In this document: piece after piece, positions 32,716-33,010 of the stretch
How positions within the stretch are numbered: the first letter of the stretch is position 1
How the letters are laid out: each line of letters starts with the position of its first letter
Source: Saccostrea cucullata
Taxonomy: Eukaryota
Assembly (NCBI RefSeq): GCF_032062105.1
Contig: NW_026919615.1
Location: forward strand, 62,001-126,000
Length of the DNA stretch: 64,000 nt
Direction: 5' to 3'
The notes under the pieces: generated by a model
Seen by the model: only the letters and a program-made list of their open reading frames with translations
Databases searched by the model: none
What the model was told of the DNA's origin: nothing
Made by a program: the position numbers and the translations under genes

Positions 32716-32843
32716 TTAAGGTAGGATTCTTCTCGTGTTTTTTGTATTTAAAAAATAATGAAATTTTCACAGATCAAGAAGACAACATCACTAAGTGATG
32801 GTTTCAGTGAAATTAAATTTGACCGTCTTATATTAGAGATATT

Positions 32844-33010
32844 GGGGTCAAATGCTGGTGAGGGTCTCGAGGGGTGTTTCTTTGGTCACGGAGATTCCCC
32901 AATAGAACTTCGAGTTAATGCCCACCGTCTCAAAAAGGTTCTGCCAGCAAGTCACATGTCACACCTCCACGTTTTGGTGGCCCTGGAAATGCTAAGGTAG
33001 CTGAGTGACA
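32844..33010 (+). ncRNA. Predicted HDV-like self-cleaving ribozyme in the RTE 5' UTR
   Basis: P1 GGGGTC (32844-32849)/GGCCCT (32979-32984) with G1-U wobble; P2 TGTCAC (32957-32962)/GTGACA (33005-33010); P3 ACC/GGT; L3 TCCACGTTTT; P1.1 GG (32985-32986); short P4; J4/2 GCTGA with putative catalytic C33001. Confidence 0.7.

Follow-up and report, generated by a model that had tools for sequence, protein, structure and literature searches.

We have considerable confidence that the first 172 bases of an RTE-type LINE in the bivalve Saccostrea cucullata fold as an HDV-type ribozyme, which likely cuts the host read-through transcript before G32844, and that this head was likely acquired as a cassette from another RTE lineage. 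All positions are those of the window, the whole 64,000-nt stretch of contig NW_026919615.1 that was analysed. The observations are the fold, its conservation, the family copies that start at its first base (G1, i.e., G32844), and the mismatch between the ancestries of head and protein. Judged from its sequence, the 5′ head of this LINE is an HDV-like ribozyme fold.

Ribozymes heading RTE LINEs were reportedly described by Ruminski in 2011. HDV-like ribozymes at RTE 5′ ends have been reported before (PMC6765202, PMC3774820, PMC5786205), as have twister heads on RTE-type elements (PMC8501958, PMC7761336), while replacement of the 5′ UTR is known in mammalian L1, and 5′ ends are common to the ingi/L1Tc (Pr77) and Nimb/RTE families (PMC4758252). 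Our literature search, which did not extend to Ruminski 2011, Webb 2009 and their supplements, found neither a bivalve RTE ribozyme nor an exchange of ribozyme heads between RTE lineages. A ribozyme at an RTE 5′ end is known; what is new is that one and the same fold stands at the front of several distantly related lineages in this genome and was likely passed between them as a cassette.

LINEs of the RTE clade have one ORF with APE and RT domains and no ORF1. The element in the window spans 32844-36937 between 11-bp target-site duplications (TSDs) and ends in TAAG-type repeats:

32829-32839, + strand: 5′ TSD of 11 bp, TATATTAGAGA, repeated at 36938-36948
32840-32843, + strand: four extra bases between TSD and G1, in the window copy only (absent in 8 of 11 clean copies; two others have two or four different bases)
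33060-33140, + strand: conserved 3′ part of the 5′ UTR and likely crossover zone, 78-84% shared with a sister lineage that has another head
33225-36931, + strand: single APE and RT ORF (Pfam Exo_endo_phos_2, RVT_1), broken in the window copy
35180-35917, + strand: nested 738-nt insertion, likely the 3′ end of another LINE, with a 14-bp TSD (35166, 35918) and an A-rich tail; no Pfam match
36920-36937, + strand: 3′ tail of short TAAG-type repeats, from the sequence and copy comparison
36938-36948, + strand: 3′ TSD of 11 bp, repeat of 32829-32839

The preliminary description had called this a full-length RTE LINE, which is right as to both ends being present but not as to the ORF. Compared with a relative (L100) that has an intact 1,048-codon frame with Exo_endo_phos, RVT_1 and DUF6451 domains and 92-93% DNA identity, the window ORF has frameshifting deletions, one stop and the nested 738-nt insertion, and the copy is dead. 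Presumably, the Cys-rich stretch encoded by the first 170 bases of this insertion resembles the C-terminal end of L1/Tx1 ORF2. Uninterrupted copies measure 3.3-3.5 kb and have TAAG-type tails and TSDs of 10-14 bp; this length, the single APE/RT/DUF6451 ORF and the tail, microsatellite 3′ tails being found in RTE elements (PMC6007223), are consistent with the RTE clade. Elsewhere in the window, a 217-codon frame at 30409-31062 on the - strand has as its sole match an uncharacterised Saccostrea echinata protein (72% identical).

The ribozyme fold at 32844-33015 and the hairpin that follows it consist of:

32844-32849, + strand: 5′ strand of P1, GGGGTC, with G32844 predicted to lie directly 3′ of the cut and marking the family 5′ end
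32850-32950, + strand: J1/2 domain of 101 nt, with closing helix P1.2 (32853-60/32942-49), a long arm with compensatory changes and a small hairpin
32951-32962, + strand: 5′ strand of P2, 5 bp, a bulged A and 6 bp, from folding and alignment
32963-32978, + strand: P3 (ACC 32963-65/GGT 32976-78) and the 10-nt L3 (32966-75), with the P1.1 cytosines at 32967-68
32979-32986, + strand: 3′ strand of P1, GGCCCT (32979-84), then the P1.1 GG (32985-86), from sequence inspection and alignment
32990-32999, + strand: P4, 3 bp with a 4-nt loop (32990-92/32997-99), 95.8% of cells paired, middle pair G-U, G-C or A-U
33000-33004, + strand: J4/2 GCTGA with the predicted catalytic C33001, this C being kept in 31 of 32 aligned copies
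33005-33015, + strand: 3′ strand of P2, 11 nt, from alignment
33017-33039, + strand: 7-bp hairpin directly 3′ of the ribozyme and within the shared head, 91.1% of cells paired, 0 double-sided changes

All five helices (P1, P2, P3, P1.1 and P4) are present in nested double-pseudoknot order, and every element that the preliminary description had named was recovered where it had placed it. P1 comprises 6 bp with a G32844.U32984 wobble at its base, and the core of P2, TGTCAC (32957-62) with GTGACA (33005-10), is extended across the bulged A by 32951-55/33011-15 to 11 bp. L3 starts with TCCACG (32966-71), a U-C-C-N-C-G motif, and C32967-C32968 are able to pair with the GG at 32985-86 as P1.1. On its own, J1/2 folds as a three-way junction, with z-scores of -2.0 in the window copy and -2.7 to -5.2 in four other copies. 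A P1 of 6 or 7 bp is usual in HDV-like ribozymes (PMC4908430, PMC3774820); the published descriptor has G1 paired with a pyrimidine (G1-Y), and its J4/2 term, CRRA, admits G at the third place (PMC6326823). The U at the second place of the J4/2 CUGA occurs also in the Rfam RF02682 consensus.

A pseudoknot descriptor, composed after the site was known, matched once over both strands of the window; neither 300 window-wide shuffles nor 20,000 confined to the element's first 300 nt gave any match. Plain minimum-free-energy (MFE) folding of 32829-33015 was ordinary compared with shuffles (z -0.11), RNAalifold paired P1 with the downstream hairpin instead of recovering the pseudoknot, and Rfam scans gave no match of a ribozyme model at 32844-33015. 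As the Rfam models have a short J1/2, the missing match was not counted against the fold; neither MFE folding nor Rfam copes with a pseudoknot of this kind carrying a 100-nt insert.

When the genome was searched for the head, 40 matches were scored out of 82 candidates, and of the 39 outside the window, 33 start within 4 nt of the position of G32844, two start slightly further away and four are truncated. The clustering of 5′ ends at GGGGTC anticipated in the preliminary description was thus found in the family. Thirty-four matches were retrieved with their flanks, three of which duplicated other loci, giving 32 distinct copies including that of the window. Eleven of the 32 have a TSD directly behind the tail (a clean TSD); in two the TSD comes with no tail, and for the remaining 19 no credible TSD was found. 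The clean TSDs adjoin G1 exactly in eight copies, one of which reads T at G1, and three copies, the window's among them, carry two to four extra, differing bases before it. A TSD-defined start 4 nt upstream of G32844, as originally proposed, accordingly describes the window copy but not the family, in which most copies start at G1, so that the family start is closer to the cut site than those 4 nt. An origin of the four extra bases from uncut donor RNA was considered, as L046 has the same four upstream, and rejected: the window copy is nearer L031, and its own TSD contains these bases.

Public contigs run from the 5′ TSD directly into the sequence that follows the 3′ TSD copy (with loose ends at 32838). 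The host sequence (32700-32839 and 36949 onward) is itself another, far more abundant repeat, of which these contigs show the empty site. Of the 24 RNA-run rows listed, 20 contain part of the stretch, in every case as assembled contigs; one contig, of 2,954 nt, begins at 32860, and assembled contigs cannot reveal a transcript start. Three copies with internal deletions (L047, 660 bp; L039, 787 bp; L050, 337 bp) retain this head, the tail and TSDs and are candidate bipartite non-autonomous elements. L100 (G000:C23805), which has the only intact ORF found for the window lineage, is 5′-truncated inside L3, and another match, C15079, starts at the same position.

The pairings are kept across the family: 91.1% of 1,758 cells are paired in the 32 copies, compared with 31-45% when the partners are slid, in agreement with the preliminary description. 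Cells changed on both sides number 46, where shuffles give 22.9 ± 3.4, but counted by pairs the double-sided changes amount to nine, which equals the shuffled mean. These compensatory changes sit mainly in J1/2, five of the nine pairs belonging to its inner helix. Covariation in the core is minimal: among the 32 copies, double-sided changes are absent from P1, P3, P1.1 and P4 and number one in P2. The core is nearly invariant, and what backs it is this invariance together with its position, not covariation. G1 forms a G.U pair in 24 copies and an A-U pair in three and is unpaired in five, P1.1 is paired in 89.7% of cells, and J4/2 reads GCTGA in 26 of 32 copies. Over 30 rows, L3 measures 10 nt in nine (including the window), 9 nt in four and 7 nt in 11, with six unparsed, and its length follows lineage; the L3 of the window copy exceeds the usual 7 nt by 3. 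The extra U's of the long L3 come after the conserved UCCNCG, and the long-L3 lineages keep every core base. The 10-nt L3, the 6-bp P1 and GCUGA had been put down to either a variant architecture or decay; the lineage-wise L3 lengths and the frequency of GCTGA eliminate decay, and these are family traits. A possible long-range helix between 33054-60 and the apical loop of J1/2 (32884-90) was set aside as a weak lead: it has one lineage-level compensatory change but does no better than shuffles (85 of 500), and there are many 5-bp alternatives.

This head is present on five ORF lineages in the genome, between which identity falls from 77-95% over the first 300 nt to about 50% from the ORF start. 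At the level of lineages, the ribozymes are 124/153 to 164/170 identical (81-96%), and the proteins of the same lineages are 40-59% identical, with four-fold sites at 28-43%, i.e., with saturated silent sites. In an ORF tree of 51 of the 58 usable rows (near-duplicate and degraded rows being excluded), the sister of the window lineage bears another type of HDV-like head, which is longer, and both then join twister-headed lineages; of the remaining carriers, three make up a clade of their own and the fifth has a long branch. The same topology came out of APE and RT trees built separately and of a bootstrap tree based on the first 600 residues, and an AU test with 21 carriers (long-branch row excluded) and 19 others rejects a single clade for the carriers (p = 4e-40). 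The second head is likewise 84-98% identical over 400 nt on ORFs that are 48% identical.

Because two sister lineages bear two heads, each common to outside lineages, we infer that one of these heads or both arrived laterally. Every combination of head and ORF found here occurs in at least two copies, so that these were once active elements and not single assembly chimeras. From 33060 on, the window lineage again resembles its sister, which brackets the likely crossover near 33060-33140. Selection alone keeps one UTR stretch 84% identical between these two lineages, so that high identity of the heads is by itself no proof of transfer. Upstream DNA was compared for 18 of 29 metagenome loci, and none of these 18 showed a relative of this head. 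Taken from these sequence comparisons, ribozyme heads were likely exchanged between RTE lineages as a cassette, with no direction assigned. We regard as reasonably probable the wider proposition that RTE retrotransposons swap whole heads (two HDV-like types, a compact HDV form and twister) across proteins about 50% identical, with the crossover in a conserved UTR, such that processing module and protein would follow separate trees within one genome.

Several other heads were encountered in the genome. The second long head (L108-L110, L136, L134, L133, L103, L113, L104 and L115; about 450 nt in L109) is HDV-like in P1, P1.1 and J4/2 but complex in the region of P3/L3, its P1 is altered on both strands between subtypes, and a UTR motif quoted as RTE-like in PMC5786205 recurs in it. 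RTE lineages with twister-P1-like heads (L101:761-815, L119, L112, L122) matched with E about 1e-6, below the gathering score; a further twister label, at L144, proved to be a truncated motif with no Rfam match and was excluded from the evidence. The RTE-like copy L106 has a compact, canonical HDV-like head with a 7-bp P1, a 7-nt L3 and GCTAA at J4/2. A second, dispersed HDV-like family (L065-L069), with 31 matches above the RF02682 cut-off among 62 scored candidates, shares the P3/L3 core, has a J1/2 that is short, and has no nearby ORF above 120 codons; its P1 opens with C-G, not G.U, and upstream sequence is common to four of five loci, so this fold may not mark a 5′ end.

In the proposed mechanism, a host transcript reads into the element and would be cut just 5′ of G32844, with C33001 as the putative general acid in Mg2+, by analogy with known HDV chemistry. 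The J1/2 domain, the long P2 and the short linkers may pinch P1 and P2 together and so speed the cut, as in drz-Agam-2-1, for which a stable J1/2 domain, a long P2 and short linkers were measured to have this effect (PMC4908430). The cut RNA would be translated and reverse-transcribed into new copies beginning at G1, and copying from G1 would account for the copies that start there. Heads would be exchanged by template switching of the reverse transcriptase or by recombination between copies, near 33060-33140.

Vertical inheritance of the ribozyme as described, under very strong selection and with loss or outside replacement in other lineages, could replace the exchange but is unlikely. The carriers do cluster on the tree (three changes against 14 when shuffled), and UTR stretches can be strongly conserved (as also in PMC5786205); it is at odds, however, with the two sister lineages whose two heads are each shared with outside lineages, and with lineages B and D, whose heads are near-identical (164/170, 43/43, 73/78) though the ORF of D is sister to that of C. 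Slightly less probable still is that activity is limited to the 7-nt L3 lineages, the 9- and 10-nt forms, including that of the window, cutting poorly or not at all and having their 5′ ends set otherwise. L3 is 7 nt long in the published design descriptor (PMC6326823), and in lineage A 32861-66 could serve as an alternative P1 strand, but the long-L3 lineages retain all core bases and have clean TSDs at G1 (L035, L046, L047, L048), the added U's follow UCCNCG, and an R2 ribozyme with deviant L3 spacing has been described (PMC3774820).

The conserved start could also reflect a head working chiefly as an internal promoter or translation-entry element fixing the start at G1, with the fold incidental or secondary. 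Conservation extends to the unpaired parts of J1/2 and to the UTR downstream, and the 5′ end of L1Tc is both promoter and ribozyme (PMC4758252). We nevertheless give this very little weight, as a complete double pseudoknot has its G1 exactly at this start and related lineages have different ribozyme folds there (twister, compact HDV); a dual role of the head as ribozyme and promoter is possible.

In retrotransposon HDV-like ribozymes already described, too, a nested double pseudoknot begins precisely where the element does, and the 6-bp P1, long J1/2 and reduced P4 of the window copy fall inside the range described for R2 (PMC3774820). The Anopheles ribozyme drz-Agam-2-1 has in common with the present head a structured J1/2 (P1.2), an extended P2 (11 bp here, 12 there) and short linkers, whereas J1/2 here forms a three-way junction and P4 is 3 bp long, the likeness being one of architecture only (PMC4908430). 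In the twister T-variants of Schistosoma Perere-3, a ribozyme also adjoins the TSD of a single-ORF APE-RT LINE, and twister-P1 heads of this class occur on neighbouring lineages in the present genome; Perere-3 differs in its ribozyme class and in that the flank supplies part of P1, whereas the present fold is contained entirely within the element (PMC8501958). L1, ingi/L1Tc (Pr77) and Nimb/RTE similarly combine a 5′ module with otherwise distant LINE bodies; here, two ribozyme classes form whole heads among RTE lineages of one genome, with a formal tree test (PMC4758252). Unlike the known retrotransposon HDV heads, the present one keeps an L3 of 9-10 nt throughout three lineages, occurs in a bivalve host and is common to several ORF lineages.

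The ribozyme carries a known rule over to a bivalve family, and its natural series of 7-, 9- and 10-nt L3 loops on one scaffold bears on how much the HDV core loop tolerates. There is also a bearing on RTE-based gene-writing templates, the UTRs of which are under optimisation (PMC13708176). The exchange of heads weighs more than the ribozyme itself: if true, it would make ribozyme classes interchangeable parts of RTE elements, would account for related LINEs bearing unrelated ribozymes and would mark the stretch of UTR that must remain with the protein.
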